A stretch of DNA of 32,000 nt from Candidatus Saccharimonadota bacterium (GTDB lineage Bacteria > Patescibacteriota > Gracilibacteria > BD1-5 > UBA6164), in contig OZ245768.1 in assembly GCA_965227835.1 (NCBI GenBank), positions 270,001-302,000 of the forward strand, given 5' to 3'. Below the pieces are notes generated by a model. The model did no database searches and was not told where the DNA came from. It worked only from the letters and a program-made list of their open reading frames with translations. The first letter of the stretch is position 1. Every line of letters starts with the position of its first letter. Shown here piece by piece: positions 1-27,845 of the stretch. A program made the position numbers and the translations under genes.

Positions 1-541
1 TTTATTTTATAATCCCAAACCTCTTATGAAATGATTATATGAAAAAATGTGTACTAAGCAAGGAGTAGAATCAGCAAGAATCCTCGCGAGGTCGATACTT
101 GAAGAAAACAAAGGAAACGTAAGTAAAACAGCTTATATATTATGATGTTCTCGTAAAACAGTAAGAAGAAGTAGAGATGGTCCTATAGAAAATATATCAA
201 GAGCTCCTAAGACTCCTCATAATAAAAAAACATCTTCTGATTTAGAATGACTTGTATTACAAGAACGAAATAAAACAAAATATTGAAGAGTACGTCTAGC
301 AAAGTATTTATTCCTCAGATATGGAATAACATTCTCTTCCTCTACTATATGAAATATACTAAAAAGAAACAAAGTAAAAAAGCATCATTATTCTCGTAGA
401 AAATGAGATAGTAAACCTCTATACGATTATCAAAATATTCTTCCCTTTGAGTATGGTCAAGTAGATACAAAGCATATAGAAGATTTTGAAGCTTTATGAG
501 AACTTTGTTTTATACTAAGAAAATATAATCTTCCTTTATAT

Positions 542-757
542 CTCAAAACTACCCACTTTTTATAAAAAGTATACCTATATTTTACTTTAAATAAAGGGAA
601 ATTAAGCTATTTTTAATGTTTTATCTTTAGTATTTTATAAATGACTTATTTAAGCTAACTTTATCTTTATAAAATTCAATCAATATAAAATCTATGTTTT
701 TACTTATATAAAGGTAAAAAATAAAATATAAAATACAAAAAACTGGGTAGATTTGAG
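542..757. mobile_element. 216-bp non-autonomous MITE derived from the IS at 894-2178
   Basis: The termini are ctcaaaactacccacttttt ... aaaaactgggtagatttgag, an inverted repeat that shares its first ~26 bp and last ~20 bp with the 1285-bp IS. It is flanked by the 6-bp direct duplication ttatat (536-541 and 758-763). The uninterrupted copy at 23095-23100 has a single ttatat. There is no ORF inside. Confidence 0.9.
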
Positions 758-893
758 TTATATCAATGGACATATATATGTGCTAAAACAAAATATAAAT
801 TTATAGCTTATTCTCATAGTCTTTCTTCTGAATTTGGTCTTATGTTTATACTTACTATAGCTACATATCTTAGGAGTATGTGAATATATTATC

Positions 894-2178
894 CTCAAAA
901 CTACCCACTTTTTATAAAATCGACATATGAGAATAAGGATAACTGAGGGAAATGTAGGTTGTTTTTATTATTTAAATTTTTAATATGTTTTTTAGGAGGT
1001 TTATACAACTTTGTTAAACAATAAGATATAAATTTAACAATAGAATTAGAATTCATAGTTATTCATCGAGATTTTGTATAATCTCTAAATCTAGATTTAA
1101 ATCTAGAAGAAAGTATAAACCTCTGATTCTCACAAAAAGAATTATTCTTTTTATATATAGTCCTAGTCAAAGCCATAGCCAACTGTATAGTAGAAACAAA
1201 ATTTTTAAATACTATTAAACTCTTAGCTTGAAGTTTCTCAAGCTGAAACTCCTGCTTCATAGTTTTAAATATTGTCTCTATTTCCCGTCTTTGTTTATAT
1301 TCTTCTATATCTGTTTTTCTTGAATTTGATAATATCCTCATTGGTTCAGGAAATTTAGGATTTGATTTAATATGAAGATATATTGATTCATTAACTGAAT
1401 TAATTCTTACCTTATGAACTCAATCTTTAAATTCCTTTAATTTCAAATATTTATTGGTTTTTAAATCAAAATATATCCTATTCTTTTTAGCTCTTATTAT
1501 CCATCTATTTACACTATTATTTAAAAACTCTATATATGATGCTATATCATATCAAGCATCATATACATATATTCACTTTCATTTAGTATAATCTTCTACT
1601 TTTTTAATTAATTTTCAAAAATATTCAGATTTAAATTTATTAGTTAAATCTTCATACTCAAGTATTACAGGAATTCAATTTATACTTACTCAATGATACA
1701 TATATCAAGAAACTATATTTCAAGTACTTCAATCTCTTACTTTAGATAAATTTTCTAGCTTCTTTGAGTATTGTTTTGCTATATCAACTTCATCAAAAAC
1801 TATATAATCATTTTTATTTATTTTTCATAACATAGAAAAACATCTTTTTTCTACTTTTAGGTTAAAATTTTTAAAACTATCTTTTTCAAAGAAATGTTTT
1901 ATTTTTTCACTCATTTTGTTAGGATTTTTATATTTTCAAAATCATAATTTGTTCATTATTGTTGTTCTTAGCTTTATTATATCTCAAAAAAACTCTTTAA
2001 TAAATCTTTTATCATTTTTGCATTCATATTTCATTAAATATCATAGTTCTTTGTTTATTATTTTTTGTATTTCTTGCATAAAAAAAAGTAATAATAATAT
2101 ATTACTTCAATTATTAGATTATCCCCTCTGTCAAGCTTTTTTTAGACTTTTTTATTAAAAAAACTGGGGAGTTTTGAG
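894..2178 (-). mobile_element. Autonomous IS of the IS4/IS5 superfamily (DDE_Tnp_1 type), 1285 bp, nested inside the IS481-like element
   Basis: The terminal inverted repeats are ctcaaaactacccacttttt (894-) and aaaaactggggagttttgag (-2178). The 6-bp target duplication attatc sits at 888-893 and 2179-2184, and the empty site is present once at 23225-23230. It carries one transposase gene. Confidence 0.9.
1063..2079 (-). CDS. DDE transposase, IS4/IS5 superfamily (338 aa under code 25)
   Basis: The frame is open for 339 codons with TGA=Gly. The exact Y(2)R(3)E(6)K signature is present in YKQRREIETIFKTMK. Candidate DDE aspartates lie in FDEVDIAK / VRDGSTG and YVYDAGYD. The track ORF 1063..1341 is its C-terminal fragment. 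The start at 2079 is in frame with the Met at 1914. Confidence 0.85.
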
Positions 2179-2669
2179 ATTATCATATGGAATTTCAATG
2201 AGATAATGGCCCTGCTGATTTTTGTGGATGAAGTAAGAGAAAGGAAAATCAGTGGAATGCTATATTAAATAATATAAATTGCTGTTTTAAGAGTATTCCT
2301 GCTTGAAAAAAATATCTTCAATGAATTGTAGAGAGATCTCATAGAACTGATGATGAAGAATTATATAGACCTTATCTTGATCGCATGAAATCTCTTCCTA
2401 ATTTTTTAAACTATAGTAGTAAATATATTTATACTTATAATAATTATAGACCTTCTTTTTGAATAGGTATGAACGGTTTAAGTCCTATTGAAAAACTTAG
2501 AAGTTGTAATATAATTCTTCCTACAAAATTTAATAATTTCCCTGTCCTTATCCTAGATAATCTTGCTAAAATTGGTGGTACCTATCTAAAGGACCATTAC
2601 CTTTCTTGATTTTTTTAAATAGAATTTAGAAAAATAATAAAAAATTATATTTTAATTGAAATTTATAGC

Positions 2670-3509
2670 TTATCTTTTACTCCTATTAAAAGCATCTTCG
2701 CTAAAAATTAGATCAAAATTTTCCAGTATCTTAGTTCAAGAATTAGGGATAACTATATAAGAATTTTTAACAATTATATCTTTGTTGGTCACGAAAGTAT
2801 CTAGTAACAATTTAGAGTAATTATTCAAAGCATTATATCTTTTTATAAATTCTCAAAGAAAAACTGTATTTGTTCTTAGGCTTATTTCTTTATACTTTAA
2901 TTCATAGTAAGAATCCAAATGACTAAAAACTTCTTGAGCTCTTGATTTAGCAAAATCTATTTCTAGAGTATTTTTTAAACTTGATATCTCTGATCTAACT
3001 CTATCATTTTCAGCTAGAAGTATATCTATTTGTTTCTTTATATTGCTAATACTTTCATTTGTAACTGTATACCTTATTTCAAGCTGTTTTATTATATTTT
3101 CTAAAGTCCTTTCTCTATCTCTTGAATTTTTGATTTCTTCTTTGAAATCTGTTTTTAATATATTGTAATACTCTTTTATAGATGTCATATTATAAACTAT
3201 AGATGATTTTACTCTGTTTGTATTTTTATAAAAATCATCTGGTTTAAATATATCCTTGTTTATTCTTTGCTCACTTATAACAGAATTTTTATTAAATCAC
3301 ATTCATATATTGCTTGTTATAGCTACTCATACATTGGCTATAGGAATAAGAACCACATTTTTATAATTTTCACTATTTTTAGCTTCAACTTTTTTTATTT
3401 TATCTTCAGAAAAACTTTCAACTAAAAATAAAAGTCAAACTGTCAGAATTAAACTTAGTGTTGTTATTTTGGCTATATTTTTTATAATACCTGTCATTTT
3501 TATATCCAT
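2670..3509 (-). CDS. Hypothetical membrane-anchored coiled-coil protein (279 aa)
   Basis: There are 280 codons without TAA/TAG in AT-rich DNA. The N-terminal hydrophobic segment is ITTLSLILTVGLLFLV. The central region is heptad-like and charged (track ORF 2853..3188, in the same frame). Several in-frame TGA codons are present. Confidence 0.65.
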
Positions 3510-8654: not shown

Positions 8655-8825
8655 ACCCCAGTCTTCTCTCCATATAGCCCTCATCCCCAGCTCCTCTCCT
8701 TTGGAGGAGAGGGGAGTATAGCAGACTTCATCCTAACACTTTCCATTTCAACCTCACCCCAGCCCCTCTCAATCATAACCTCACCCCAGCCCTCTCCTTA
8801 GAGGAGAGGGAGTAGAACATGGTGT
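8655..8825. repeat. Cluster of GC-rich palindromic repeat units (family shared with 27755-27845)
   Basis: The units resemble cctcaccccagccctctccttagaggagagggagtagaacatggtg. One hairpin is ccctctcc/ggagaggg at 8790-8810. A second is ctcctctcc..ggaggagagg at 8691-8712, and a partial unit lies at 8751-8777. They stand out against the AT-rich background. Confidence 0.8.
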
Positions 8826-9427: not shown

Positions 9428-9501
9428 GGTGCCTTGGTAGAGTGGTTATACAGAGGTCTGCAACACCTTTTACAGCGGTTCGAACCCGCTAGGCACCTCC
9501 A
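9428..9501 (+). tRNA. tRNA-Cys: tRNA-Cys (anticodon GCA), CCA encoded
   Basis: Manual cloverleaf: acceptor ggtgcct/aggcacc; anticodon arm gaggt-CTGCAAC-acctt with U33 and A37; T arm agcgg-ttcgaac-ccgct. The discriminator is U73 and the D stem is 3 bp with a 13:22 mismatch, both typical of tRNA-Cys. The 3' end is CCA. Confidence 0.9.
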
Positions 9502-10278: not shown

Positions 10279-11919
10279 ATGAAACAATTAATTAAATCAA
10301 TTTATAAAGAAAACAAAGTTATCTTTTATATAACTTTGTTTGTTACCATAGTGTCTTCTTGAGCAGAGATAGTTAGTTGAGTGATACAAAAATATATTTT
10401 GGATAGTTTGGTATTATTAGACGATTTTAAAAAAGTATGATATCTACTTTTACTTTTGTTTATATCTTACTGAGTGAACCAAATCTTTTGAGCATTAACT
10501 TATTATTTTTCAGCTAAATTTTGAGAAAAACTAGAAATGGATTACAAGAAAAAAGCTTTAGATAAATTTAATAAAATAAAATACTCAATAATTCTTGATA
10601 AAAAGCAGTGAGAAATAGATAGTATTGTATCAAAATGAGCATCTTCAATAAATAGACTTATACAAAGCTTTTTCTCTCAAATTCTTCAAAACTCAATGAT
10701 GATAATTTTTTGATTAACAGTTTTATTTATAGTTGATGAATATATATTTTTTTACCTTGTTTTCTTTTTTATCCCAATTTTTGTCCTATATTCTATTTTT
10801 CAAATAAAAAAGAGAGTACCTACTCTAAAAGATATTAACAAAAAAGATGATAAAGTATCATGAGATGTAGTTGAATATATGTCTAATATAAGAGATATAA
10901 AAATATTTGGAGTTGAAAGTAAGTTTGTTTCGTCATTTTTTCATAAATTTTTAGATATTTTTTCTCTAAACTTATTCTTATACAAACATCAGCACTATAT
11001 GAATTTCATTCAATTTATTATACTTATTTGAAGTATGTGTATAGTTTTAGCTTATACTTGATACAATATTATAAATTGAGTTTTATCTATAGGGACCTTT
11101 ATACTTGTATATCATATATTTTGAACTATTAGATTTGCTCTTTGGGATTTGGTATTTCTTTATAATATATTTGAAGAAGATATAGTAAAAGTTAAAAAGT
11201 TTTTAGAATTTTTTGAACTTGAAGAACAAAACCAAGAGATAGAAAAACTGGACTGAAAATTTAAGAAATTAGAAGTTTCAAATTTAAATTTTTCATATGA
11301 TTGAAAAACAGAAATATTAAAAAATGTGTCATTTGAGCTGAAATCTGGAGATAAGATAGCTATTATTTGAAAAAGCTGACAATGAAAAACTACACTTACT
11401 TCTTTGATATTATGATTATTTGATTGATATAAGGGTAATATTTTGTTTAATAGCAAGAAAATAAATGGTAGAATAGATTCTATATTTTCGTATGTAGCTC
11501 AAGATACAAAAATGTTTAATGAAACAATTAGATTTAATATGACACTATGAGAGAAATTTAGTGATAAAATACTTGTAGATATGCTGGAAAAAGTATGACT
11601 TAATTATTTGAGTTCTAGGGTAGATTCGGGGGAAAATATACTTGATATACAAATAGGTTCTGACGGGTTAAAACTTTCTTGATGAGAAAGGCAGAGGTTA
11701 GGTATAGCAAGAGCTATGATAAGACAAAAAGATATTTATGTTTTTGATGAGATAACTTCCAATTTAGATGAACAAACTGAAAAATCTATCTTGGATTTAA
11801 TATTTAAAATAGCTAAAGACAAGACTTTTATAATTATTACTCACAAAAAAGAAGTTCTTAAAAAAGTTGATGTGATATATGAAATGAGAGACGGGAATTT
11901 AAGTTTTGTTTGACAATAG
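10279..11919 (+). CDS. ABC transporter, fused permease/ATP-binding protein (type I exporter, MsbA-like; 546 aa)
   Basis: I parsed all 547 codons and found no TAA/TAG. The N-terminal half contains six hydrophobic segments. Walker A is GKSGQGKTT (11368-11394, three of its Gly are TGA). The ABC signature is LSGGERQRL and Walker B is IYVFDE. Track ORF 11716..11913 is the in-frame tail. Confidence 0.9.
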
Positions 11920-11970
11920 TTAAATTATGAGTAAATACTTAGTATTTTTAAAATTTAAATTAATAAAATT

Positions 11971-12531
11971 ATGTCTAATGAATTATTTATATGAGAGGGG
12001 ATTTCTACTTTATATCCACCTGAAAAAAAAGTTTGAGTTACAGGCATTCCAGAAAAATTTAGATTAGATATTGCTACTAAAACAAATTCTTTAGTTTGAA
12101 CCTTGGATAATAATCAATGTAATATTAGTTATTGAATAACTGATAATGTTGATGGTAATAGAGAACATAGCAATAAAGATAATCAAAAACTCGTATGGGT
12201 GGCTAATTGAGAATTAAATGAAGAATCAGCTTTGGTTATATCATTTTTAAGAGGAAAACTAAATTCTATATTATCATGAAAATCTTTTGTTTTAACTTGA
12301 AGAAAGCTAGAGTGATTAGACTATCTTTTAAATAAAGAAGTTTCAAAAGATGTAATTGAAAATATTATAAGAAGCAAAGATTTTGCTTATAGTATTATGA
12401 ATGATTATATGTGAGCTACTCAAACCATAAAAATAGACAATTTTTGAACTTTTAAAGTTATATCCTTACTTTGAGATAAAAACTATATTTTCCTAGAAAC
12501 TGATTGAAAATATTATAATTTAGATGTTTAA
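11971..12531 (+). CDS. Hypothetical protein (186 aa)
   Basis: It spans 187 codons without TAA/TAG. It starts 51 bp after the ABC gene and ends 39 bp before the pirin gene, so it is probably in the same operon. I recognised no motif. Confidence 0.6.
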
Positions 12532-12570
12532 ATTAATAAATAAATCTAAAATCATCAAGTAATTACCAAA

Positions 12571-13266
12571 ATGAAAAACACAATAATAAATAAAAGCCAG
12601 CTATACAAATCAGATCACTCTTGGCTTACAAGCTATCATATTTTTTCTTTTGCAGATTATTACGATAGCAACAATATAGATTTTTGAAACCTAAGAGTCT
12701 TTAATGACGATTTTATAAAATCTGAAACTTGATTTTGATTACATCCTCATAGAGATACTGAAATACTAACCATAGTTTTAGAATGAGAAATAACTCATGG
12801 AGATAGTTTATGAAATAAACAAACTACCAAAACTTGAGAAATACAAACTATTACTGCAGGGACTTGAATACTTCACAGCGAACAAAATCTTTGAAAAAAG
12901 GATGTGCATTTATATCAAATTTGGTTTAAAACAAATAGTTTCTCACTAAAACCAGAATATAAAAGTCATAAAATAAATTTAAAAGAAAGTAGTCTTAACT
13001 TGCTAGCTTCCCTAAAAAAAGAAAATAATGTATGATTTTTAAACTCAGATGTATCTGTTTATAGATGAAAATTTGATAAAGATGATAACTTTGAGTTTGA
13101 AATAAAAAAATCAAAAGGCTTATTTTTATATGTTTATAAATGACAAATTGAAATAGACTGAAATAAACTTCAAACTCAAGATCATCTAAGATATTCCATA
13201 GAAGGAGTATATAAATTTAAAATCTTAGAAAAAAGTGATTTTATATTAATAGAAGTAAGCTTATAG
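12571..13266 (+). CDS. Pirin family (cupin) protein (231 aa)
   Basis: The motif HPHRDTEILTIVLEGEITHGDSLGN...TAGTGILHSEQN matches the pirin metal-binding motifs HxH...E...H. The stop is TAG at 13264-13266. Confidence 0.85.
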
Positions 13267-13879: not shown

Positions 13880-13883
13880 AAAA

Positions 13884-13979
13884 AAGAAAAATTTATTACA
13901 AGAGCAAAGAGCTAAAACCCTTTGTTGATAAAAGAAAAATTTCTTACAATAGCAGAGAGCTGAAGCTCTCTGTTGATAA
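13884..13979. repeat. Two tandem ~48-bp units: AAGAAAAATTTCTTACAA-hairpin-TGTTGATAA
   Basis: Unit 1 is ...gaaaaatttattacaagagcaaagagctaaaaccctttgttgataa. Unit 2 is aagaaaaatttcttacaatagcagagagctgaagctctctgttgataa, with stem cagagagc/gctctctg. On the minus strand they lie directly after the hrpA stop and are each followed by a T-rich run, so they probably also act as its terminator. A third copy is at 18294-18345. Confidence 0.75.
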
Positions 13980-13985
13980 TGAATT

Positions 13986-16900
13986 TTAATTAATTCTTTT
14001 AATTTCTTCAAGGCAAGAACTATATTCAGCTACTCTTTGTTCTAATCATTCTATAAGTAATTCCATAACAGAAATATCTTCTAGTGAATTAAGTTCATCT
14101 TTATAGTTTTTATAATTCTCAATATAGAAAAGCAAATCTTCATATTTGGATATAAGAATGGCTTTTTTTATTATTTTTTCATCTTTTATTTTTGAAAAAG
14201 AAGATTTTAGGATAAATTTTATTATTATTTGTTTCACTCATACCCTCTTATTAATACTATCCCTAACTATATCTAAACTAAGGTTAAAAATCTTTGGATA
14301 TAAAACACTATTATAATAATCTAAATCAAAAAAATCTATAAAAAGCTTATTTATAAACTTATTTAAATCTCTCAAAAAAGGTATTGACTCTAAATTTATA
14401 TAAGATAGCTCTTTTGATATTTCTTTCTCTAAATTATTTTTAATTTTTTGTAATTCAGGGATGAAGCTCTCAAACCTTTTTATTCAAACAGATTTTTTTT
14501 CTAGATTTCCAGATGAAACCAATTCAATTGCTTCAAAGAAGTACTTTCTTTTTTGTTCATCAAAATACTTAAATTTATAAAAAGCTCTCATCAAATTCTC
14601 ATCAAACACAAAATCATCTTTTTCTAATTTTTCTATATTTCAAATAATATTTAGTACAAAAGATGTTCTCTTTTGTAATTTAGATAAATTTTTCTTTCTT
14701 GTAGTCATTTGACCCATATTTCTCAAAACTTCTTGCAAAAACAAAGATTTTCTTTTCTCCAACTTATCCAAATGCTTTTTACTTACAAGTTCTTCATTAA
14801 TACTTAATAAAATATCTTGTATATTTTGTCTAGTTATACTATCTAAAATATTTTTATAACAATTTTCTAGCTTTTCGTAAAAAGGATGCATTTCAATATT
14901 TTCAAAATGTCTATTTAGTATTTCTTTTTTTAATTCATCTACACTAACTAATTCATTTGAGCTTATTTTACCTAAAATTCTTAAATAATTCTTTTTTAAT
15001 TCTATAAATTTTTTTGTGTTTGATTCATTTTGATCTTCGCAGTAAATCTCTGGAACTTCAACTTTTTCTGCAACTCATTTATAATCCAAAGAAGAAAAAT
15101 CCACATCTTTTCACGATAAAAACTTTCTTATAAAAGGATCTTCACTATTTAAGAAATTGCTTAAAATCAGGGAATCATGTTTGAATCTCCTTTCGGTATT
15201 TGCTATACTATATGGTTGTATTCTGTGTTTCTCTTCTTCCAATATAAACCTTTTCAAAAGCTCTCTAAAAGTATAAATATATTTTTCATTTCTTCATTTC
15301 AAGAATTTCTTTATTTTTAAGTTATGTGCTATCAAAAAATCAGGTAGACAGTATTTTAGATAATAATCCAAAGCATTATAATTTGTATTAAATGAATTAC
15401 AGTTTATTTTATGTGAATATACCTCCAAAGCACTAGAATAATTTTTTATAGCAGTTTCTAAATTTAGTCTATCAAAATCAATATTCAATCCACTTATATC
15501 TTTTTTCTTCAAAAGATGCTTAAAAGGCTTTATATCTTCTTCTTGTATCTTTTCTAAAAATGTTAAGATATTTAAATCAGATTTGCTTCCGTCTCATCAT
15601 ATAATAAAAGGTGTAGCTATATATAAAGCCTTATCTTCTTTTTTTACAATACTTACATCTCAAGATATAAATTTCAACAAGCATTTTTTATTATATTTAC
15701 TCCTAAAGGTATTGCTTTTTTTATTATAAAGATAAATATTATGAAGATTTCAAGAAACAAGACACATCTTTTTATCATACTCGCTTCAGCTTTCTAATAA
15801 TTTTATTCCAAGTTCATTAAGTCTATTTATAAGTATTTCTATAGTATTTTGTATTTCTTCTATTTTTTTATTCTTTATTCAAACAGGATATAAATCAACT
15901 ATTTCAAAAAGCATATATTTTCAATCAAAACTACAAAAATTGTTTAATTCATCTTTGTCTATTCATAAATCTAAAAGTTCTTTTATTTTTAATTTATTTA
16001 GTCTTCTTGATTTTACAAGATTAAATAATTCTAGGTAGTAGAATAAATCAGAATTTTTATCTCTTTTTATGTTTATCTTTTTCCATTTTCAAGATTTTGA
16101 TAAAAATCATCATTTTTCAATTATTGAGACTATTAGTAAAATATCCTTGCTACATCATCTTTTTATTGATTCTAAAAGAATTCTTGAATTATAAACTCAA
16201 AGGGGGAATATAACAAGTTCTCTACCGAGTTTAGTTATTTTGTTTTTAAAGTCTAAAGCTCATATCTCATATAGTCTTTCATATGCCAAATTCAAAAGAT
16301 TTTCGGATACATTATGAAAAAATAGTTTTTCTCATACTTTTTTTGATTTTTTGTATTCCTTTTTTACGTCAAACCCATTAGTCATCATCACAAGTATATA
16401 TCTTTCAAGCATTTCTCTCTCTATAGGAGATTCTGGAAACTCCCCTAATTTTTCAAAATCAGTATTATTTGCTCTTATGTATTCACCCTTATGTGTTCTA
16501 CCAGCTCTACCAGCTCTTTGAATACAATTAGCTTTGTTTATATTTTCTATTCTAAGTTCTTGTATTCAAAAATCATTAGTTCTTACAATTTTGTGAGTTC
16601 ACAAATCAACTACCAAATCTATATAATCTATTGTTATACTTTCTTCTGCTATATTTGTAGATACAATTATTCTTGTTTCTCACTGACTTTTTGTTAAAAG
16701 TTTTTGTTGTTCTTCTTTAGGTAAATCTGAGTGTAGGGGATAAATACCATTTTTACTTCATATACTTTTTGATAGTGAATCTATAGTTTCTTCTATTTCT
16801 TTTTTTCAAGGTGCAAAAACCAATATATTTTTGCCTTTTTTATATGCTCCTGAAATAGTTTTTATATATCAATTTTGCTTGTTATAATATTTATCTACTT

Positions 16901-18235: not shown

Positions 18236-18263
18236 AGTAAACTAACTTGTAAGTTAGTTTACT
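18236..18263. promoter_or_regulatory. 28-bp operator-like perfect palindrome (13-bp arms, 2-bp spacer)
   Basis: The sequence is agtaaactaactt-gt-aagttagtttact. The half-site gttagtttact recurs at 18401-18411 with an imperfect partner (taactaac-ga-gttagttt). It lies in the divergent intergenic region between the 86-aa ORF and fic. Confidence 0.55.
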
Positions 18264-18293
18264 GTTGATAAATAAATTAGATATCTTCTTTTC

Positions 18294-18345
18294 AAAAATA
18301 GAAATTTCTTACAATAGCAAAGGGCTAAAGTCTTCTATTGACAAA
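18294..18345. repeat. Third, isolated copy of the TTACAA-hairpin-TTGA(T/C)A repeat unit
   Basis: atagaaatttcttacaatagcaaagggctaaagtcttctattgacaaa aligns with the units at 13884-13979. Confidence 0.65.
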
Positions 18346-18411
18346 AAATAAAAATTGTCTTTTTGATAAAAATTGTATTTTAAAATATTCTAACTAACGA
18401 GTTAGTTTACT

Positions 18412-18525
18412 ATAGGTAAAAACTTTACTGATTTTTTTACCTACAAACGAGATAGGTAAAATTTTTTGCTTTTTTTTTACCTATAAATAAGATAGGTAAA
18501 AAATTTTATCTTTTTTTTACCTATA
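18412..18525 (+). promoter_or_regulatory. Three tandem ~34-bp palindromes (ATAGGTAAAA-N-TTTTACCTAT) ending 4 nt before the fic start codon
   Basis: P1 (18412-18444) is ataggtaaaaactttactgatttttttacctac. P2 (18452-18485) is ataggtaaaattttttgctttttttttacctat. P3 (18492-18525) is ataggtaaaaaattttatcttttttttacctat. The period is about 40 bp. Confidence 0.7.
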
Positions 18526-18529
18526 AAAA

Positions 18530-19621
18530 ATGATTAATACCAAACCTTACAATGATTTGCCTCTTTTACCTTTTTGTTTTCAAGATTTTATGACAAATGA
18601 GGTTTATAAAAAGGTTATTAAAACAAATAAAGAATTAGCTAGATTAAACGGTATAGAGCAAATGAACAATAGGAAAATATCTTCAATTTTTCTAAATTCA
18701 CTTGTTTTAACTGAATCTATAGATTCAAATATTATTGAAAATATAAATACTACTATAGATAGTGTTGCTTTATCTAATGCTATAAAAAATATAAAATGAA
18801 ATGAAAAAGAGACTATTAGATATAAAGAAGCTATGATTTATGGTTTGGAAGAAATGAGATCAAAAAATAATCTATTATCAACTAATATCATTGTTTGAAT
18901 TCAAGAAAAAATTGAAGAAAATTCTGCTTGAGTTAGAAAAGTACCTTGAACTAAATTGAAAAATGAAAAAACTTGAGAAATAGTTTATTATCCACCATAT
19001 CCAAATTTTTTAGATAAGCTATTAAATAATCTTGAAAAGTATATAAATGATGAAAATATTCATGAAATAGATGACTGTATCAAAGCTTCTGTGATACATT
19101 ATCAATTTGAATCTATTCATCCTTTTTTAGATTGAAATTGAAGGACTTGAAGGATATTAATTCTTTTATATTTAATTAAAAGATGACTTTTAAATTTTCC
19201 AATATTGTATGTTTCATGATATATAAACCAAAATAAGTCTGATTATTATAGGCTTTTACAAGAGGTAAGAACCAAAAATAATTGGGAGGGTTATATATTG
19301 TATATGTTGGATGCTATAGAAAAGCAATCAAAAGCTACATGAGATAAGATTTTGAAAATAAATAGTCTTTATAAAAGCAAATTAGAGAATTTTAAAAAAA
19401 GCTCTGATTTGCCTTGAGTAGATACCTTGTGTGATTTACTATTTCAAGAGATATATATTACATTTTGAGAAATTCTCAAAAATCTACAAGTAAGTAAACC
19501 TACTTTGATAAAAAAATTAAATGAACTTGAAAATTTAGGTTTGGTAAACAAGATTAAAGACTGAAAAAATACGATATATTTTTTATGAGAATATTTAGAG
19601 ATTCTTAAAAATAACTGATAA
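18530..19621 (+). CDS. fic: Fic family protein (class II, AMPylase-type) with a C-terminal winged-helix-like domain (363 aa)
   Basis: The Fic core HPFLDGNGRTGR lies at 19118-19153, and all three Gly are TGA. The N-terminal inhibitory-helix motif [S/T]xxxE[G/N] appears as SNIIEN (18725-18742) within TESIDSNIIENI. The C-terminal LQVSKPTLIKKLNELENLGLV is HTH-like. The stop is TAA at 19619-19621. Confidence 0.92.
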
Positions 19622-19708: not shown

Positions 19709-20091
19709 TTACTCATTCTCTCCTTCTATTTTTTTCAGTAATTCAGGCATTTTTTCTCTAACATCACTTACATCAAATCCATTTTCCTCAGCCTCTTTAA
19801 CTTTTTTTTCAAGAATATCATAAGAGCTTTTAAATAAAAATTTTTCAGTTCCAGACAGAGCTTCTCTAATCTCTTTACGAAGTACTTTTTCAAATAATTC
19901 AGGCATTTGTTTTTTTACTCTATCTATGTCAATATCGAGTTTATCTTCTATTACTATTCTAACTTCATCAGCAACATCATCATAAAGATGTCTACTTAAT
20001 TTTTTTTAGCAAGAGAGAACTTTTTATTAATAATTTTAGAAGCTACGTGTAATGCCTCACTAGAACACATATGATTAGGAGTACGACCCAT
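19709..20091 (-). pseudogene. Single-repeat paralog of the 52-aa-repeat protein, frameshifted at a homopolymer
   Basis: The ATG at 20091 opens a 31-codon ORF that stops at 19996-19998. The downstream frame encodes ...LYDDVADEVRIVIEDKLDIDIDRVKKQMPELFEKVLRKEIREALSGTEKFLFKSSYDILEKKVKEAEENGFDVSDVREKMPELLKKIEGENE. The two frames meet at T8 (20000-20007), and one extra T would give a continuous 127-aa ORF. The 53-bp 5' leader is near-identical to that of 21109..22386. Confidence 0.75.
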
Positions 20092-20258
20092 AATAAATTT
20101 AAATTAAAAATTAAACTAACAATGATATGTTATCATATATAATTAATCCAACACTAAACCACCAGCTCTGCTGGTGCGAGTAGTGGAGGTTTTACCGTTC
20201 CGGTAGTTGTGTATAATCTTCTAGGAAGCACCTAGGAGGGGAATAACTTTTTAAAGAT

Positions 20259-20918
20259 ATGTCCCACAAATACACAAAGCAGTCCCATGTGAATTGGGAC
20301 TGCATTTACCACATAGTGGTGGTACCAAAGTACCGAAAAAAAATACTTTTTCAATCAGTTAGAAAAGATATACGAGACACATTTCATGAACTTGCAAAGA
20401 GATATGATTTTGAGATATTAAAATGAAATATAACGATAGATCATGTTCATCTCGTTTTGAGGATATCTCCAAAATACTCTGTTGCAGAAATTCTGTGAAG
20501 ATTGAAATGAAAGAGTGCAATAATACTTCATAACAAACATAGTAAGAAGAAATGACTGTACTCGAAGAATTTCTGGAGTAGATGATACTATGTAAGTACC
20601 TCAAAACTACCCACTTTTTATAAAAAGTATACCTATATTTTACTTTAAATAAAGGGAAATTAAGCTATTTTTAGTGTTTTATCTTTAGTATTTTATAAAT
20701 GACTTATTTAAGCTAACTTTATCTTTATAAAATTCAATCAATATAAAATCTCTGTTTTTACTTATATAAAGGTAAAAAATAAAATATAAAATACAAAAAA
20801 CTGGGTAGATTTAAGAAGTACAGTTTGACTTGACTTGGATATGATAAAAAATTATGTTCAACATCAGCAACATAAGGATAAAACCATTGATGGAAATCAG
20901 TTAGATTTAAACTGGTAA
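20259..20918 (+). pseudogene. tnpA: IS200-type Y1 (HUH) transposase TnpA, interrupted by the MITE
   Basis: The N-terminal part is MSHKYTKQSHVNWDCIYHIVVVPKYRKKIL...ITIDHVHLVLRISPKYSVAEILGRLKGKSA...FWSRGYYVST. It carries the HUH motif as HVH and the catalytic-Tyr region as SRGYYVST. After the MITE and its target duplication the frame resumes as VGLDLDMIKNYVQHQQHKDKTIDGNQLDLNW, ending at TAA 20916-20918. The restored length is 145 aa. Confidence 0.88.
20600..20815. mobile_element. Second copy of the 216-bp MITE
   Basis: It is near-identical to 542-757, with a handful of substitutions. The 6-bp target duplication aagtac sits at 20594-20599 and 20816-20821. Removing the element and one duplicate restores the tnpA codons gta agt aca gtt (VSTV). 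Confidence 0.9.
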
Positions 20919-21108
20919 AAACTATTTTAGCCCCTTCTAGGGGCTTCCATTTAAAGCTACCAGTTCTACTGGTAGATATTTACTATTTGTGTCAAAATTT
21001 CTCTTCAAAAAAATAAAGCTTTGATATTTGAAAAATAATTTTTTCCCGAAGTAAGAAATGAAGTACAATTAATAGAGAAGAAAATATAGTATTCCCCGTA
21101 GGGTAATA

Positions 21109-22386
21109 TTATTTATTCCTTTCTTCTATTTTTTTAAGTAATTCAGGCATTTGTTTTTCAACATCGCTTACATCAACTTTATTTTCTTTAGCTTCTCTAA
21201 CACTATTTTCTAAAACATCATAAGAAGACTTACATAGTCTTTTTTTAGTATCAGCTAAACTTTCATCGACTTCATTGCGAAGAACTTTTTTAAGTAATTC
21301 AGGCATTTGTTTTTCAACATCGCTTACATCAACTTTATTTTCTTTAGCTTCTCTAACACTATTTTCTAAAACATCATAAGAAGACTTACATAGTCTTTTT
21401 TTAGTATCAGCTAAACTTTCATCGACTTCATTGCGAAGAACTTTTTTAAGTAATTCAGGCATTTGTTTTTCAACATCATCTACATTAACTCCACCTTCTT
21501 CTGCTTCTCTAATATTAATTACTAAGAAATCATAGAAAACTTTACTCAAACTTTTTTTAGTATCAGCCAAACTTTCATCAACTTCATTACGAAGAACTTT
21601 TTTCAATAATTCAGGCATTTTTTCTTTCACATCACCTACATTAACTCCACCTTTTTCAGCTTCTTTGATACTAATTAATAAATTATTATAAGAACTTTTA
21701 TTCAAATTCTCTTTTGCATCAGCCAAACTTTCATCAACTTCATTACGAAGAACTTTTTTCAATAATTCAGGCATTTTTTCTTTCACATCACCTACATTAA
21801 CTCCACCTTTTTCAGCTTCTTTGATACTAATTAATAAATTATTATAAGAACTTTTATTCAAATTCTCTTTTGCATCAGCTGAATTTTCATCAACTTCATT
21901 GCGAAGAACTTTTTTAAGTAATTCAGGCATTTGTTTTTCAACATCGCTTACATCAACTTCATTTTCTTTAGCTTCTCTAATATCATTCTTTAAAAAATTA
22001 TAAGAAATTTTACTCAAACTCTTTTCAGTTCTATCTAAACTTTCATCAACTTCATTGCGAAGAACTTTTTTAAGTAATTCAGGCATTTGTTTTTCAACAT
22101 CGCTTACATCAACTTCATTTTCTTTAGCTTCTCTAATATCATTCTTTAAAAAATTATAAGAAATTTTACTCAAACTCTTTTCAGTTCTATCTAAACTTTC
22201 ATCAACTTCATTGCGAAGAACTTTTTTAAGTAATTCAGGCATTTGTTTTTCAATGTGTTTTACATTCATCTTATTTTTTACAGCTGATTTAACATAATTA
22301 ACAAGCTCATCATAAGAATATTTATATAAATGTCTTTCAGTATAAGATAATCTATCTTCAATATTTCTAATAAAACTATCACCCAT
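21109..22386 (-). CDS. Tandem-repeat protein of unknown function: seven 52-aa charged helical repeats (425 aa)
   Basis: This is the only long ORF intact in the standard-code track. The repeat consensus is MPELLKKVLRNEVDESLxxTxKxLxKxSYxxLxxxIxEAxExxVxVxDVEKQ. There is no signal peptide or hydrophobic segment. I recognised no family. Confidence 0.85.
   Translation of the reverse strand: MGDSFIRNIEDRLSYTERHLYKYSYDELVNYVKSAVKNKMNVKHIEKQMPELLKKVLRNEVDESLDRTEKSLSKISYNFLKNDIREAKENEVDVSDVEKQMPELLKKVLRNEVDESLDRTEKSLSKISYNFLKNDIREAKENEVDVSDVEKQMPELLKKVLRNEVDENSADAKENLNKSSYNNLLISIKEAEKGGVNVGDVKEKMPELLKKVLRNEVDESLADAKENLNKSSYNNLLISIKEAEKGGVNVGDVKEKMPELLKKVLRNEVDESLADTKKSLSKVFYDFLVINIREAEEGGVNVDDVEKQMPELLKKVLRNEVDESLADTKKRLCKSSYDVLENSVREAKENKVDVSDVEKQMPELLKKVLRNEVDESLADTKKRLCKSSYDVLENSVREAKENKVDVSDVEKQMPELLKKIEERNK
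21130..22253 (-). repeat. 156-bp tandem repeat array, 7.2 units, inside the CDS
   Basis: The complement of the MPELL Met codon ends at 21150, 21306, 21462, 21618, 21774, 21930, 22086 and 22242. These positions are exactly 156 nt apart. By protein sequence the units fall into types ordered D-D-C-B'-B-A-A along the + strand. The two A units and the two D units are each identical to one another, and B and B' differ at two residues. Confidence 0.95.
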
Positions 22387-22470
22387 AATAAATTTAAATT
22401 AAAAATTAAATTAACAATGATATGTTATAATATATAATTATTTTTATCAAAGTTTCTCTTCAAAAAAATA

Positions 22471-23655
22471 TTATCTGTACCAGTAGATAGGTACCACTAT
22501 TTATTGATATGGAATTGTGTAAAAAAGAGGATGAGGATATAATAGATTTTGTAAAAAATTTTATTTTATAATCCCAAACCTCTTATGAAATGATTATATG
22601 AAAAAATGTGTACTAAGCAAGGAGTAGAATCAGCAAGAATCCTCGCGAGGTCGATACTTGAAGAAAACAAAGGAAACGTAAGTAAAACAGCTTATATATT
22701 ATGATGTTCTCGTAAAACAGTAAGAAGAAGTAGAGATGGTCCTATAGAAAATATATCAAGAGCTCCTAAGACTCCTCATAATAAAAAAACATCTTCTGAT
22801 TTAGAATGACTTGTATTACAAGAACGAAATAAAACAAAATATTGAAGAGTACGTCTAGCAAAGTATTTATTCCTCAGATATGGAATAACATTCTCTTCCT
22901 CTACTATATGAAATATACTAAAAAGAAACAAAGTAAAAAAGCATCATTATTCTCGTAGAAAATGAGATAGTAAACCTCTATACGATTATCAAAATATTCT
23001 TCCCTTTGAGTATGGTCAAGTAGATACAAAGCATATAGAAGATTTTGAAGCTTTATGAGAACTTTGTTTTATACTAAGAAAATATAATCTTCCTTTATAT
23101 CAATGGACATATATATGTGCTAAAACAAAATATAAATTTATAGCTTATTCTCATAGTCTTTCTTCTGAATTTGGTCTTATGTTTATACTTACTATAGCTA
23201 CATATCTTAGGAGTATGTGAATATATTATCATATGGAATTTCAATGAGATAATGGCCCTGCTGATTTTTGTGGATGAAGTAAGAGAAAGGAAAATCAGTG
23301 GAATGCTATATTAAATAATATAAATTGCTGTTTTAAGAGTATTCCTGCTTGAAAAAAATATCTTCAATGAATTGTAGAGAGATCTCATAGAACTGATGAT
23401 GAAGAATTATATAGACCTTATCTTGATCGCATGAAATCTCTTCCTAATTTTTTAAACCATAGTAGTAAATATATTTATACTTATAATAATTATAGACCTT
23501 CTTTTTGAATAGGTATGAACGGTTTAAGTCCTATTGAAAAACTTAGAAGTTGTAATATAATTCTTCCTACAAAATTTAATAATTTCCCTGTCCTTATCCT
23601 AGATAATCTTGCTAAAATTGGTGGTACCTATCTAAAGGACCATTACCTTTCTTGA
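22471..23655 (+). mobile_element. IS481-like insertion sequence, copy 2 (intact); the left boundary is approximate
   Basis: Positions 22560-23655 match copy 1. A 14-bp inverted repeat is present: tagataggtaccac at 22484-22497 and gtggtacctatcta at 23624-23637. The whole insertion is bracketed between 22470 and 23680, because the paralogous upstream region (21013-21022) has only aagctt there. Confidence 0.75.
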
Positions 23656-23676
23656 AACTTTTTCCAAAAAATCTAA
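22585..23676 (+). CDS. IS481-like DDE (rve integrase core) transposase (363 aa)
   Basis: The N-terminal HTH-like region is ARILARSILEENKGNVSKTAYILGCSRKTVRR. The DDE triad context is QVDTKHI, FQGDNGPADF and VERSHRTDDEELY. There are 15+ in-frame TGA codons. The ORF passes the TGA at the element terminus (23653-23655) and stops at TAA 23674-23676 in flanking DNA. Confidence 0.88.
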
Positions 23677-23746
23677 ATCTGATATTTGAAAAATCAATTT
23701 TCTTTATTAATATAAAATCCAGCAATAAATCTTAATTTTAAAAAAA

Positions 23747-25372
23747 TTGAAAACATCAGACTTATTTGTAAAAATCCTTGAAAAAAAAGGAGTAGAAACT
23801 ATTTATTGAGTGCCTTGAGAGGAAAATCTAGATTTGCTTGATTCTATATGAAAATCCAAAATAGAACTAATACTAACTAGAAACGAGCAAACAGCAGTTT
23901 TTATGGCAGCCAACTATGGTAGATTTACTTGAAAACCATGAGTGGCTCTAGCTACCCTATGACCATGAGCAACAAATATGATGACCTGAATAGCCTATGC
24001 TCAGCTTGGATGAATGCCTATAATTGCTATAACATGACAAAAACCCCAAAATAAATCAAAACAATGACAATTCCAAATAATAGACATAGTATCTATGATG
24101 AAACCTATAAGCAAATACTGTATTAGTATAGTTTCTTGAAATAGAGTACCATATATACTTGAAAATGCCTTTAAAATAGCAGAAGAAGAAAAACCTTGAG
24201 CCGTGGTTATAGAACTCCCAGAAGATATAGCATGAGAAGTTGTTAGTGAAAACTTTAGTATAATAGACCTAAAAACAGAAAAACAAAGACGACCAGTAAT
24301 AGATGATAAATGATTGAAAAACCTAATATCTGAATTAGAAAATGCTAAATCTCCTGTAATACTTATATGAGCATGAGCTAATAGAAAAAGAATCACTAAA
24401 TACCTAACAAAATTTATATACAAATACAATATACCTTTTTTTAGCTCACAAATGTGAAAGTGAGTAGTTGATGAAAGAAGTGAGCAATATATAGGAACGG
24501 CTGCTTTGACATCTTGAGATTATATACACAATTGTCTAAAAGAATCTGATCTTATAATATCTGTTTGATACGACGTAGTAGAAAAACCAACAGAAATACT
24601 TGGTATAAATGGGACAAAACTTATAAACATAAACTTTTTTTCCTCATACTATGATTATGTTTATAGTCCCTATTTAGATGTAGTATGAGATATAGCCAAT
24701 ATCTTTTGGTCTCTTTGTCAGCAAGAAATTGATTCATCTTGATGGGATTTTTCTAAAATATATGAAATTAACAAAAAAAATAAGGCACAAATAGAGGAAA
24801 ATATCAAACTTGAAGATAAGTTTTCTTATATGATGCCTAGAAGACTTTGTAAAGAATTGAGAAAATACCTGTGAGAAGATGATATACTTACACTTGATAA
24901 TTGACTTTACAAAGTATGGATAGCAAGAAACTATCCAGCCTATATGCCAAATACTTTGGTTTTAGATAATGCACTAGCAACTATGTGAGCCTGATATTCT
25001 TCAGCTATGGAAGCTAAAAGACTTAATCCAAATAAAAAAGTAGTGTGTGTTACCTGAGATTGATGACTTATAATGAATCTTTGAGATTTAGAAACAGCAG
25101 TTAGATTAAATCTAGATTTGGTAATAATAGTCCTAAACAATAATTCCTACTGAATGATAAAATGGAAACAAGAATGAGCTTGATTAAAAAAGTTTTGATT
25201 AGATTTTAAAAATCCAGATTTTGTAAAACTAGCTGAAAGTTTTGGAGCTAGATGAATAAGAATAGAAGATAAAAATGATTTCTGACCTGTATTAAAAGAT
25301 ATTTTAAGCAAAAAGGGCATCTCTATAATTGACTTGCGATTCTCATATCCTCAGGATACAGGAATCATTTAA
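23747..25372 (+). CDS. Thiamine-diphosphate enzyme, acetolactate synthase-like (541 aa)
   Basis: Motifs are [49 protein letters not shown], and the ThDP motif TGDGGLIMN...NNNSYGMI (TGDGG at 25052-25066, three Gly are TGA). The putative start is TTG at 23747, and no in-frame ATG lies between the upstream TAA and this point. The standard-code ORF 24001..24429 (-) is antisense to it. Confidence 0.88.
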
Positions 25373-27754: not shown

Positions 27755-27845
27755 AGCCTCATCCATTTCGGTAATACCTCACCCTAACCCAAACAAGCCC
27801 TCACCCTAACCCTCTCCTTAGAGGATAGGGGATAGAACAGTGTAT
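27755..27845. repeat. Second cluster of the GC-rich palindromic repeat family
   Basis: cctcatccatttcggtaatacctcaccctaacccaaacaagccctcaccctaaccctctccttagaggataggggatagaacagtg aligns with 8725-8825. The hairpin ccctctcc-ttaga-ggataggg lies at 27820-27840. Confidence 0.8.

Follow-up and report, generated by a model that had tools for sequence, protein, structure and literature searches.

A genomic window of 32,000 nucleotides from a bacterium using genetic code 25 very probably records the disruption of one mobile element by two others: a copy of an IS481-family insertion sequence (IS) was struck independently, at points 130 bp apart, by an IS of the IS4 superfamily and by a MITE with the same termini. 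The host of these elements is a Gracilibacterium: wherever a homologue of the adjacent TPP enzyme is named, it comes from Candidatus Gracilibacteria. Of the 27 TGA codons in the aldehyde dehydrogenase gene, 15 align with Gly residues of 4it9_A and none with Trp, and the codon shares are 4.4% for TGA, 1.8% for GGN and 0.7% for TGG. The reading of TGA as Trp (code 4) is ruled out by the lack of any TGA aligned with Trp and by the sheer frequency of this codon, and the alignments indicate that TGA encodes glycine (code 25). TGA codons also occupy conserved Gly positions in the transposases of both the IS481-like and the IS4-like element, so that the adaptation of these genes to code 25, suggested in a first-pass annotation of the window, holds for them as well as for a housekeeping gene. 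Nesting of this sort is commonplace among transposons and the elements are of known kinds; what the region shows is a mobile-element population that is active and code-adapted in a very small genome.

The argument starts from an intact copy of the IS481-like element in the same window (copy 2; Table 1). When positions 542-757 and 894-2178, together with one repeat of each of the 6-bp duplications TTATAT and ATTATC, are taken out of 1-2609, the joined segments 1-541, 764-893 and 2185-2609 match 22560-23655 of copy 2 at 1095 of 1096 positions, the only mismatch being 2412 T (copy 1) versus 23458 C (copy 2). Copy 2 contains a single TTATAT (23095-23100) and a single ATTATC (23225-23230) of these duplicated hexamers, and these are the empty sites of the two insertions. 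The coordinates and duplications previously given for the MITE and the IS, their common termini and the single difference between the IS481-like copies are all borne out. The arrangement had been described as three-level; two elements do lie inside a third, but they sit side by side and the depth of nesting is two. It is hardly credible that the nesting arose during assembly through wrong joining of repeat copies in the contig. Such repeats do cause assembly problems, given that 17 contig ends of the short-read MAG UBA6489 break at a related IS, but a misjoin would produce neither perfect 6-bp duplications at both insertions nor an uninterrupted open reading frame (ORF) after removal of the inserts, and a duplication with its empty site recurs at a second MITE copy (MITE-2) and in L039, L040 and L041, which come from an independent long-read assembly.

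Table 1 Mobile elements and associated features of the window (family names are predicted assignments)
Feature	Position	Strand	Remarks
IS481-like copy 1, 5' segment	1..541	+	identical to 22560-23100
MITE-1, 216 bp	542..757	+	target duplication TTATAT at 536-541 and 758-763
IS481-like copy 1, middle segment	758..893	+	identical to 23095-23230; target duplication at either end (758-763, 888-893)
Putative IS4-superfamily IS, 1285 bp	894..2178	-	target duplication ATTATC at 888-893 and 2179-2184
IS transposase gene, 392 codons and TAG stop	901..2079	-	TAG within left terminal repeat
IS481-like copy 1, 3' segment	2179..2601	+	identical to 23225-23647 except 2412 T vs C
Flank TTTCTTGA, 8 nt	2602..2609	+	identical to copy 2 flank 23648-23655
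Unoccupied target CTATTA in ABC-transporter gene	11126..11131	.	MITE at this site in related strain
IS200/IS605-type element hosting MITE-2	20140..20985	+	extent by homology to L039
MITE-2	20600..20815	+	target duplication AAGTAC at 20594-20599 and 20816-20821
IS481-like copy 2, intact, 1179 bp	22469..23647	+	ends from comparison with L038 and L039; related strain lacks copy 2, breakpoint 23647/23648
IS481-like transposase ORF, 363 codons, 14 TGA codons	22585..23676	+	DDE = D147, D222, E265

Copy 2 had been proposed as the uninterrupted reference at 22560-23655, and copy 1 had been assigned the extent 1-2618. As an empty-site control copy 2 is valid, but these boundaries reflect the window edge and the 8-nt shared flank rather than the real ends of the element, and the identity of the two copies stops at 2609/23655. 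The right end (2601/23647), which reads ...GGACCATTACC, is set by at least nine copies with differing flanks, by L038 and L039, and by L041, where the orthologous site is empty; since that empty site carries TTTCTTGG, the sequence TTTCTTGA at the copy 2 locus is chromosomal. The complete element thus begins with TATTATCTGTACC and ends with GGACCATTACC, and the reference copy spans 22469-23647. The truncation of copy 1 is due solely to the window edge, which lies 91 nt inside the element, with the transposase ATG at position 26 and codons 1-172 preceding MITE-1. A 22-nt inverted repeat, TGTACCAGTAGATAGGTACCAC / TGGTCCTTTAGATAGGTACCAC, matches at 18 of 22 positions, with the core TAGATAGGTACCAC located in copy 2 at 22484-22497 and 23621-23634. 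No consistent target duplication of the IS481-like element was found in copy 2, L038 and L039, for which both flanks are available, together with the empty site of L041.

Under code 25, the transposase of this element is encoded by one continuous 363-codon ORF, without frameshifting. The stop codon is absent within the element and reading continues into the flank, hence each copy has its own C-terminal tail. The MITE and the IS interrupt this ORF behind codons 172 and 216, respectively, and copy 1, with its transposase gene split, is dead; its 5' fragment is represented in a public protein cluster as P0120 (179 aa), which ends in the MITE-encoded tail LKTTHFL. The NCBIfam model transpos_IS481 is the best match of the transposase (E 1.2e-23, profile positions 10-282 of 284), homologues with 41-54% identity are labelled IS481 family by NCBI, and, in an alignment with the named family members, D147, D222 and E265 fall on the motifs DTKH, DNG and ExSHR. 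These comparisons agree with the original identification and place the disrupted element as a probable divergent member of the IS481 family. Elements of this family carry terminal inverted repeats at their ends, often starting with 5'-TGT, and generate direct target repeats of 4-15 bp. Like the family prototype, IS481 of Bordetella pertussis (ISfinder), the element has a size close to 1.2 kb and a single long ORF whose product combines an N-terminal helix-turn-helix with a DDE core of the integrase type. It departs from the family in its 14 TGA (Gly) codons, in the lack of a stop codon inside the element, in a score of 84 bits against the curated NCBIfam cut-off of 224, and in the recognisable inverted repeat, which is set back by 8 nt and 5 nt from the ends.

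The 1285-bp insert has terminal inverted repeats (894-913 and 2159-2178) that match at 18 of 20 positions and an intact transposase ORF of 392 aa, not 338 aa as first reported, in which TGA is used 16 times for Gly. Thirty homologues show no variation at D96, D174 and E268, the catalytic residues, or at Y261, R264, E268 and K275, which make up a full Y(2)R(3)E(6)K signature, and the protein matches Pfam DDE_Tnp_1 (PF01609) with 38.8 bits against a cut-off of 23. Among the NCBIfam models, the best IS4 match is transpos_IS4_1 (32.5 bits, cut-off 115), and the scores against the IS701, IS1634, IS982 and IS1380 models are likewise below the respective cut-offs (for IS1634, 23.9 bits against 100). 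Of the candidate families named in the first-pass annotation (IS4, IS5, IS982 and IS1634), which pointed to the right neighbourhood, these features single out the IS4 superfamily as the predicted affiliation. Full-length relatives with 77-99% identity are present in other Gracilibacteria/Patescibacteria contigs (L005, L034, L035 and L040); at the related copy in L035, no recognisable duplication was detected.

The 216-bp element is a MITE: it is short and non-coding (18.5% GC, longest open stretch 42 codons), it has the termini of an IS, CTCAAAACTACCCACTTTTT and, on the reverse strand, CTCAAATCTACCCAGTTTTT, with the same length of target duplication, and it occurs in several copies with empty sites. 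MITE-2, which is identical to MITE-1 at 213 of 216 positions (3 mismatches), breaks an IS200-like tnpA gene into 20259-20599 and 20822-20918. Without MITE-2 and one target duplication, a 145-aa tnpA ORF is regained, which scores 119 bits against Pfam Y1_Tnp (PF01797) and in which the conserved GYYVSTVG motif of TnpA is restored; the empty paralogous site is present in L039. Altogether, three MITE copies have 6-bp duplications and matching empty sites, and a fourth copy is inferred from the protein P0001. MITE-2 was missing from the first-pass annotation.

The left-end 26 nt are identical between the MITE and the IS, and the right ends of both fit a 20-nt degenerate consensus, CTCAAAWCTMCCCASTTTTT, which has 6 matches in the window versus 0 expected from shuffles. 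A search for similarity between the interiors of the two elements returned low-complexity AT-rich alignments only, so that sharing is confined to the termini of approximately 20-26 bp and the duplication length. The IS had been called the autonomous parent of the MITE. It is a full-length IS with the termini of the MITE, but calling it a parent overstates the relationship because the interiors lack similarity, and an origin of the MITE by deletion of the IS is not evident given that no internal IS remnant is present in it.

The most likely mechanism would be one in which the IS4-like transposase binds the termini of about 20 bp (CTCAAAWCTMCCCASTTTTT) and can move either element, the MITE in trans, inserting it where AT-rich DNA is cut with a 6-bp stagger, so as to yield the 6-bp duplications. 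By analogy with Tn5 and Tn10, transposition would be of the cut-and-paste type. We infer that the MITE is mobilised by the transposase of the IS in the window. It is very unlikely that the 216-bp element instead owes its mobility to a different IS family member, or is a decaying relic that no longer moves. These readings draw on the fact that the termini alone are common to MITE and IS, whose interiors are unrelated, and on the right terminus of the MITE, CTCAAATCTACCCAGTTTTT, which differs at 2 positions from the right end of the window IS and equals the left terminus of an 84%-identical IS in L034, so that the helper could be another member of the IS family; furthermore, the MITE copies, with 3/216 differences within the genome and 9% between strains, are more diverged than those of the IS (99% identity between strains). 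Against both readings, the left 26 nt of the MITE are identical to those of the IS of the same genome, the target duplications have identical lengths, the genome holds two intact 392-aa transposase genes, and MITE occupancy varies between closely related strains. Mobilisation of bacterial MITEs in trans by a resident IS is known for RUP with IS630-Spn1 in Streptococcus pneumoniae and for the Correia elements of Neisseria. The MITE of the window resembles these in being short and non-coding, with IS termini and the corresponding length of target duplication, near-identical copies, and empty and filled sites; it differs from them in the absence of an internal IS remnant and in the use of code 25 by its host.

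Duplications of 6 bp were found at six independent insertions of the IS/MITE system: in addition to the two insertions in copy 1 and to MITE-2, CTATTA is filled in L041 and empty in the window, and the IS copies of L040 and L034 are flanked by AAAAAA and TATTTG, respectively. The insertions in other transposons seem mostly to be those that did no harm and therefore survived in a small genome densely packed with genes. An active preference of the system for transposons as targets, instead of selection leaving such insertions, is unlikely. Other IS elements account for only about 10% of the remaining sequence of the window but contain all three insertions, and elsewhere in the genome the MITE lies inside its own partner IS; however, the probability of three out of three in IS is approximately 0.1 if only intergenic and IS DNA is tolerated, and the protein clusters that reveal the copies elsewhere register only insertions within genes. 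Moreover, the MITE of the related strain is inside a chromosomal ABC-transporter gene, the IS of L040 is located between ordinary genes, and AT-richness (86% A+T) is the sole feature that the six duplicated sequences have in common.

Turnover of the elements is seen from the comparison with a related strain, whose orthologous DNA, 11.1 kb in length, has 96.3% identity to that of the window. This strain lacks 19769-23647, with the right breakpoint exactly at the end of the IS481-like element, and thus has neither IS481-like copy 2 nor the IS200-like element with MITE-2; other insertions are present in place of the missing ones. In L041, a MITE 91% identical to those of the window (positions 1820-2035) has CTATTA on both sides and resides in the ABC-transporter gene that is intact in the window. 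At least five presence/absence differences were found in approximately 16 kb. In line with the recent transposition proposed earlier, this strain-to-strain variation documents mobile-element activity that appears recent and ongoing in a code-25 CPR genome of 1.49 Mb.

Copy numbers were estimated from protein variants in public clusters that derive from the same 1,489,121-bp contig, so that the counts are lower bounds. The genome contains at least 10 copies of the IS481-like element (two of these in the window), with identical cores and distinct read-through tails, and at least five copies of the IS4-like element, one of which is interrupted by the MITE: its tail, QNYPLFIKSIPIFYFK, corresponds to MITE reading frame 2. 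Truncated protein tails point to two further elements, neither of which was found in the window or in any of the loci retrieved for comparison. A scan of GTDB genomes with the terminal consensus yielded a related IS in MAG UBA6489 and 16 chance matches, with no MITE; a scan of JGI metagenomes with the consensus extended to 26 nt yielded a related IS in two contigs and two unrelated matches, again with no MITE, and the contig of the window was itself absent from these matches. An Rfam scan of the window detected one tRNA and no other known RNA family. In the literature on IS and MITEs of Gracilibacteria, Absconditabacteria and CPR bacteria, we found no earlier description of these elements.

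In Mycoplasma, elements of the IS1634 family likewise proliferate in small, AT-rich genomes with recoded TGA. The IS of the window has 6-bp AT-rich duplications in common with the IS1634 family (e.g., IS1634 of Mycoplasma mycoides), whose members are 1500-2000 bp long, generate 5-6-bp AT-rich duplications, carry a long N3-C1 spacer and in most cases lack the Arg of YREK (De Palmenaer et al. 2008, PMC2266710); unlike them, it is 1285 bp long, with a spacer of 93 residues between D174 and E268 and an invariant Arg (R264). The criterion for the IS4 family is the full Y-(2)-R-(3)-E-(6)-K motif, the target duplications of the IS4 subgroups are 7-13 bp long, and the IS10 subgroup has a size range of 1200-1350 bp (De Palmenaer et al. 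2008, PMC2266710). With the IS10, IS50 and ISPepr1 subgroups of this family, the window IS shares the DDE_Tnp_1 domain, the full YREK motif, 5'-CT termini and a size in the IS10 range, but it makes 6-bp duplications, scores far below the cut-offs of the NCBIfam IS4 models, and belongs to a close transposase clade that was found only in hosts with recoded TGA. Because it combines an IS4-type signature with 6-bp duplications, this IS fits no described IS4, IS701 or IS1634 subgroup. It is conceivable, although we would put the chances at slightly less than even, that the IS4-like element and the MITE represent an undescribed subgroup of the IS4 superfamily, with full YREK and 6-bp target duplications, that diversified exclusively in bacteria reading TGA as Gly.

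The IS transposase could not be made in a cell using the standard code because of its 16 TGA codons at conserved Gly positions. If the proposed subgroup is real, the IS4-like system and the recoded IS481-like element would constitute a code-locked mobilome; codon reassignment would be no bar to transposon proliferation in a CPR genome of about 1.5 Mb but may confine transposons to the recoded lineage, and the turnover between strains would make this lineage a natural system to test whether an altered code isolates mobile elements. IS families rich in TGA (Gly) codons bear on the question of alternative codes as barriers to mobile DNA. Public protein collections translate the TGA codons of these genes as Trp, which accounts for Trp at conserved Gly positions and for depressed profile scores. 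For annotation, four types of mobile elements of a Gracilibacterium gain curated boundaries, along with their termini and duplication lengths. Within the candidate IS4-like subgroup, diversification would reach down to about 36% protein identity.

Window positions 1-3000 and 22300-23900 were read and compared by script, and joining of the segments 1-541, 764-893 and 2185-2609 reproduced 22560-23655, in the region of the second IS481-like copy, at 1095 of 1096 positions, the sole mismatch being T at 2412 against C at 23458. The MITE and the IS4-like element that interrupt copy 1 are each flanked by a hexamer duplication, TTATAT and ATTATC, respectively, and each hexamer occurs once at the corresponding place in the uninterrupted copy 2, confirming the interrupted structure proposed in the first-pass annotation. 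The two inserts have their first 26 nt in common, and a consensus that fits all termini, CTCAAAWCTMCCCASTTTTT, has six matches in the window, two of which are the termini of a second MITE (MITE-2), and none in 100 shuffles. Both inserts lie inside the IS481-like copy, as proposed, but not at three levels: they sit side by side, 130 bp apart, neither within the other, so the nesting depth is two. Chimeric assembly as the source of this layout is strongly argued against by the perfect duplications at the inserts, the exact restoration of the ORFs once inserts are removed, and the recurrence of the same signatures in an independent assembly. The annotation was right on essentially everything important; the corrections concern element boundaries, ORF length, nesting depth and the term 'parent' for the IS.

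Coordinates of the mobile elements and other features (window positions unless a related-strain locus is named)
Feature	Position	Strand	Details
MITE-1 insert	542-757		216 bp; TTATAT flanks at 536-541 and 758-763
IS4-like insert	894-2178		1285 bp; ATTATC flanks at 888-893 and 2179-2184
IS4-like transposase	901-2079	minus	392 aa; 16 TGA codons
MITE-2	20600-20815		3 mismatches to MITE-1; target duplication AAGTAC
IS481-like copy 2, extent by comparison	22469-23647		1179 bp
IS481-like transposase ORF	22585-23676		363 codons; 14 TGA codons
IS481-like inverted-repeat core	22484-22497 and 23621-23634		TAGATAGGTACCAC; 14 nt, perfect
Flank following both IS481-like copies	2602-2609 and 23648-23655		TTTCTTGA; 8 nt
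Aldehyde dehydrogenase gene	26301-27674
Gene absent from related strain	11959-12531 (within 11903-12567)		190 codons
Tandem-repeat gene	21109-22398	minus	eight 156-bp (52-aa) repeats; zero TGA codons
Paralogous fragment of tandem-repeat gene	19709-20005	minus
Shared upstream region of these two	20086-20145 and 22381-22440		60 nt
Hairpin-containing intergenic repeat and tandem palindromic units	13882-13991, 18295-18356 and 18412-18531		62-nt repeat, three copies; 40-nt units, three in tandem
GC-rich repeat	8742-8819 and 27762-27839; L038 16887-16919; L039 15224-15265; L040 429-529		~80-100 nt
tRNA-Cys (GCA)	9428-9501		sole Rfam or ARAGORN match in window

The boundaries of the IS481-like element were redrawn by comparison with a related strain represented by an independent public assembly (ENA ERZ25074195; loci L038, L039 and L041). 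Homology to these loci begins at 22469 and stops at 23647, at ...GGACCATTACC. The right end is confirmed by at least nine further source-genome copies, the transposase products of which diverge one nucleotide past the ...KDHY codons into tails including QFKSRP..., QFVK, LFCFCVGS, QIHLIF..., HLLIWV..., LILC, PF and RKYWLSF, and by the orthologous L041, which becomes homologous to the window again at exactly 23648. By these alignments, the element occupies this interval rather than the one first annotated, and the right end of copy 1 is 2601; its apparent start at position 1 is the window edge. A perfect inverted-repeat core is present near both ends, and no target duplication was recognised at copy 2, in L038 or L039, or at the L041 empty site. 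The identical 8 nt that follow both window copies belong to the flank and not to the element because the L041 empty site reads TTTCTTGG. The chance of such identity is ~1e-4, and it may be due to a preferred target sequence or to a cut made 8 nt past the element end during transposition.

The best profile match of the IS481-like transposase is to NCBIfam IS481 (profile positions 10-282 of 284), with a score of 84 bits, below the curated cut-off of 224. Homologues with 41-54% identity carry the NCBI name IS481 family, and a relative from Caldicellulosiruptor, which uses the standard code, is 43% identical. The DDE triad consists of D147, D222 and E265, and most of the 13 core TGA positions align with Gly of the relatives, none with Trp. 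Since the ORF lacks an internal stop, each copy gains its own C-terminal tail from the flank; these read-through tails comprise 2-43 residues and differ between copies (the window ORF and source-genome proteins P0112-P0126).

When translated by the standard code, the 32-kb window contains only five ORFs of at least 100 aa; reading through TGA makes it densely coding. Across 13 long genes, TGA accounts for 4.4% of the codons, all GGN for 1.8% and TGG for 0.7%. Of the 27 TGA codons in the aldehyde dehydrogenase gene, 15 are aligned to a Gly in Synechococcus SSADH 4it9_A, including those of the PFGG, SGYG and GxP motifs, and none to a Trp. Together, the codon use and this alignment show that TGA encodes Gly (code 25). 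For the adjacent TPP enzyme, every named homologue comes from Candidatus Gracilibacteria, with at most 74% identity. Public protein collections store the source genome (one contig of 1,489,121 bp) and many related contigs with TGA as Trp (P0001, P0002, P0113 and others), resulting in 4-6% Trp, Trp at conserved Gly positions, and depressed profile scores and identities for code-25 organisms.

The transposase of the IS4-like element was annotated as 338 aa, a length that corresponds to an internal Met start; homologues span all 392 residues, and the TAG stop falls within the left terminal repeat. The protein matches Pfam DDE_Tnp_1 above threshold, and its NCBIfam matches (IS4, IS701, IS1634 and IS982 models) are weak and all under cut-off. 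An alignment of 30 family members shows invariant D96, D174 and E268, as well as invariant Y261, R264, E268 and K275, an exact Y-(2)-R-(3)-E-(6)-K signature. IS4 proper is defined by a complete YREK, and its members have duplications of 7-13 bp; 4-6 bp duplications accompany the YREK-defective families IS701, ISH3 and IS1634 (De Palmenaer et al. 2008, PMC2266710). The full YREK and 6-bp duplications combined here place the element outside all described groups, and on these sequence features we filed it as an unplaced subgroup of the IS4 superfamily. Of 19 close relatives of the transposase that were sampled (36-79% identity), 18 have a Trp content of 2.4-6.3% and place Trp in columns of conserved Gly, the hallmark of TGA-recoded genomes translated with code 4, and the 19th is Gracilibacteria by NCBI annotation. 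The next group (~22% identity) has 0.2-0.5% Trp, with Gly at those of the positions that are conserved-Gly columns. By this pattern, the clade has long resided in TGA = Gly hosts, which supports the earlier view that these elements are not recent imports.

The MITE has 18.5% GC and no coding capacity, and folding prediction pairs the two terminal repeats with each other. Comparison of the MITE and IS interiors detected no similarity beyond the termini, so that the IS is shown to be the partner of the MITE, but not its autonomous parent by deletion. Mobility is evident from the empty site for MITE-1 in copy 2 and from the further copies described next. MITE-2, which the first-pass annotation did not mention, lies inside an IS200-like tnpA: its excision with one AAGTAC yields a 145-aa Y1 transposase (119 bits, Pfam Y1_Tnp), and L039 has a MITE-free copy of the same IS200-like element. 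A third copy, 91% identical and flanked by CTATTA, is located in the ABC-transporter gene of the related strain; the window gene is intact, with the empty site at 11126-11131. A fourth breaks another source-genome IS4-like transposase gene, the tail QNYPLFIKSIPIFYFK of protein P0001 being MITE reading frame 2.

Protein variants on the 1.49-Mb contig give lower bounds of at least 10 IS481-like copies, with cores identical at the amino-acid level, and at least five IS4-like copies, two of them intact. The related strain, 96.3% identical across 11.1 kb of orthologous sequence, lacks 19769-23647, a stretch containing the body of the repeat-protein gene, the MITE-2-bearing IS200-like element and IS481-like copy 2. 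Conversely, in L041 the ABC-transporter gene is interrupted by a 1205-bp IS5-like element (39-1243, TIR GGACCTCTGCAA) and by the MITE (1820-2035), and an IS200-like element (12450-13102) separates the sigma-factor gene from that for aldehyde dehydrogenase; the window equivalents of all three (10556-10561, 11126-11131 and ~26185) are empty. A related-assembly IS4-like copy is 99.1% identical to that in the window (target duplication AAAAAA). Recent activity that probably still goes on is thus well supported. A true three-deep nest exists in the related strain (L039 9885-12913), with an IS200-like element inside an IS5-like element (TIR CCTGTTGC, target duplication CTTTATGAG) inside an IS481-like one. 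More distant relatives of the IS, with 77-84% identity, were found in MAG UBA6489, the assembly of which is broken by at least nine copies, as well as in two contigs from JGI metagenomes.

All three window insertions of the IS/MITE system are in other IS elements, which could suggest an active preference for transposon targets. This appears less likely, given the related-strain insertion in an ordinary gene, the L040 IS4-like copy of that strain between ordinary genes, and six duplications with only AT-richness in common; the likelier reason for the location would be that insertions doing no harm persist in a gene-dense genome. The features are of kinds already known, namely an IS481-family IS, an IS4-superfamily IS whose motif and duplication length form an unusual pair, a MITE and an IS200-like IS. 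More broadly, they make up an active mobilome, adapted to TGA as Gly, in a Gracilibacteria genome of small size.

Two more inserted elements occur elsewhere in the source genome and are absent from the window and the fetched loci. One (proteins P0108 and P0125, common tail ICCVLILKRVLIKKCTKIDERFIKFIYFLLNYSHFYI) interrupts an IS4-like as well as an IS481-like transposase gene; the other (P0110 and P0007, tails GTSAKR and MIFIQNHFFLVLFNNIAEVP) splits an IS4-like gene. The related strain also lacks 18249-18412 and, in its orthologous region, a 190-codon gene that the window has.

The tandem-repeat gene, the body of which is missing from L041, has a short paralogous fragment nearby with the same upstream region, and next to this pair lie IS481-like copy 2 and the IS200-like element that MITE-2 interrupts. 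The window further contains a hairpin-containing intergenic repeat and, just upstream of a Fic gene, three tandem 40-nt palindromic units (ATAGGTAAAAA...TTTTTTTACCTAT). Finally, a dispersed GC-rich repeat with the palindrome CCCTCTCCTTAGAGGAGAGGG, conspicuous against the 25% GC of the genome, may be a REP-like or other small mobile element, or a terminator.
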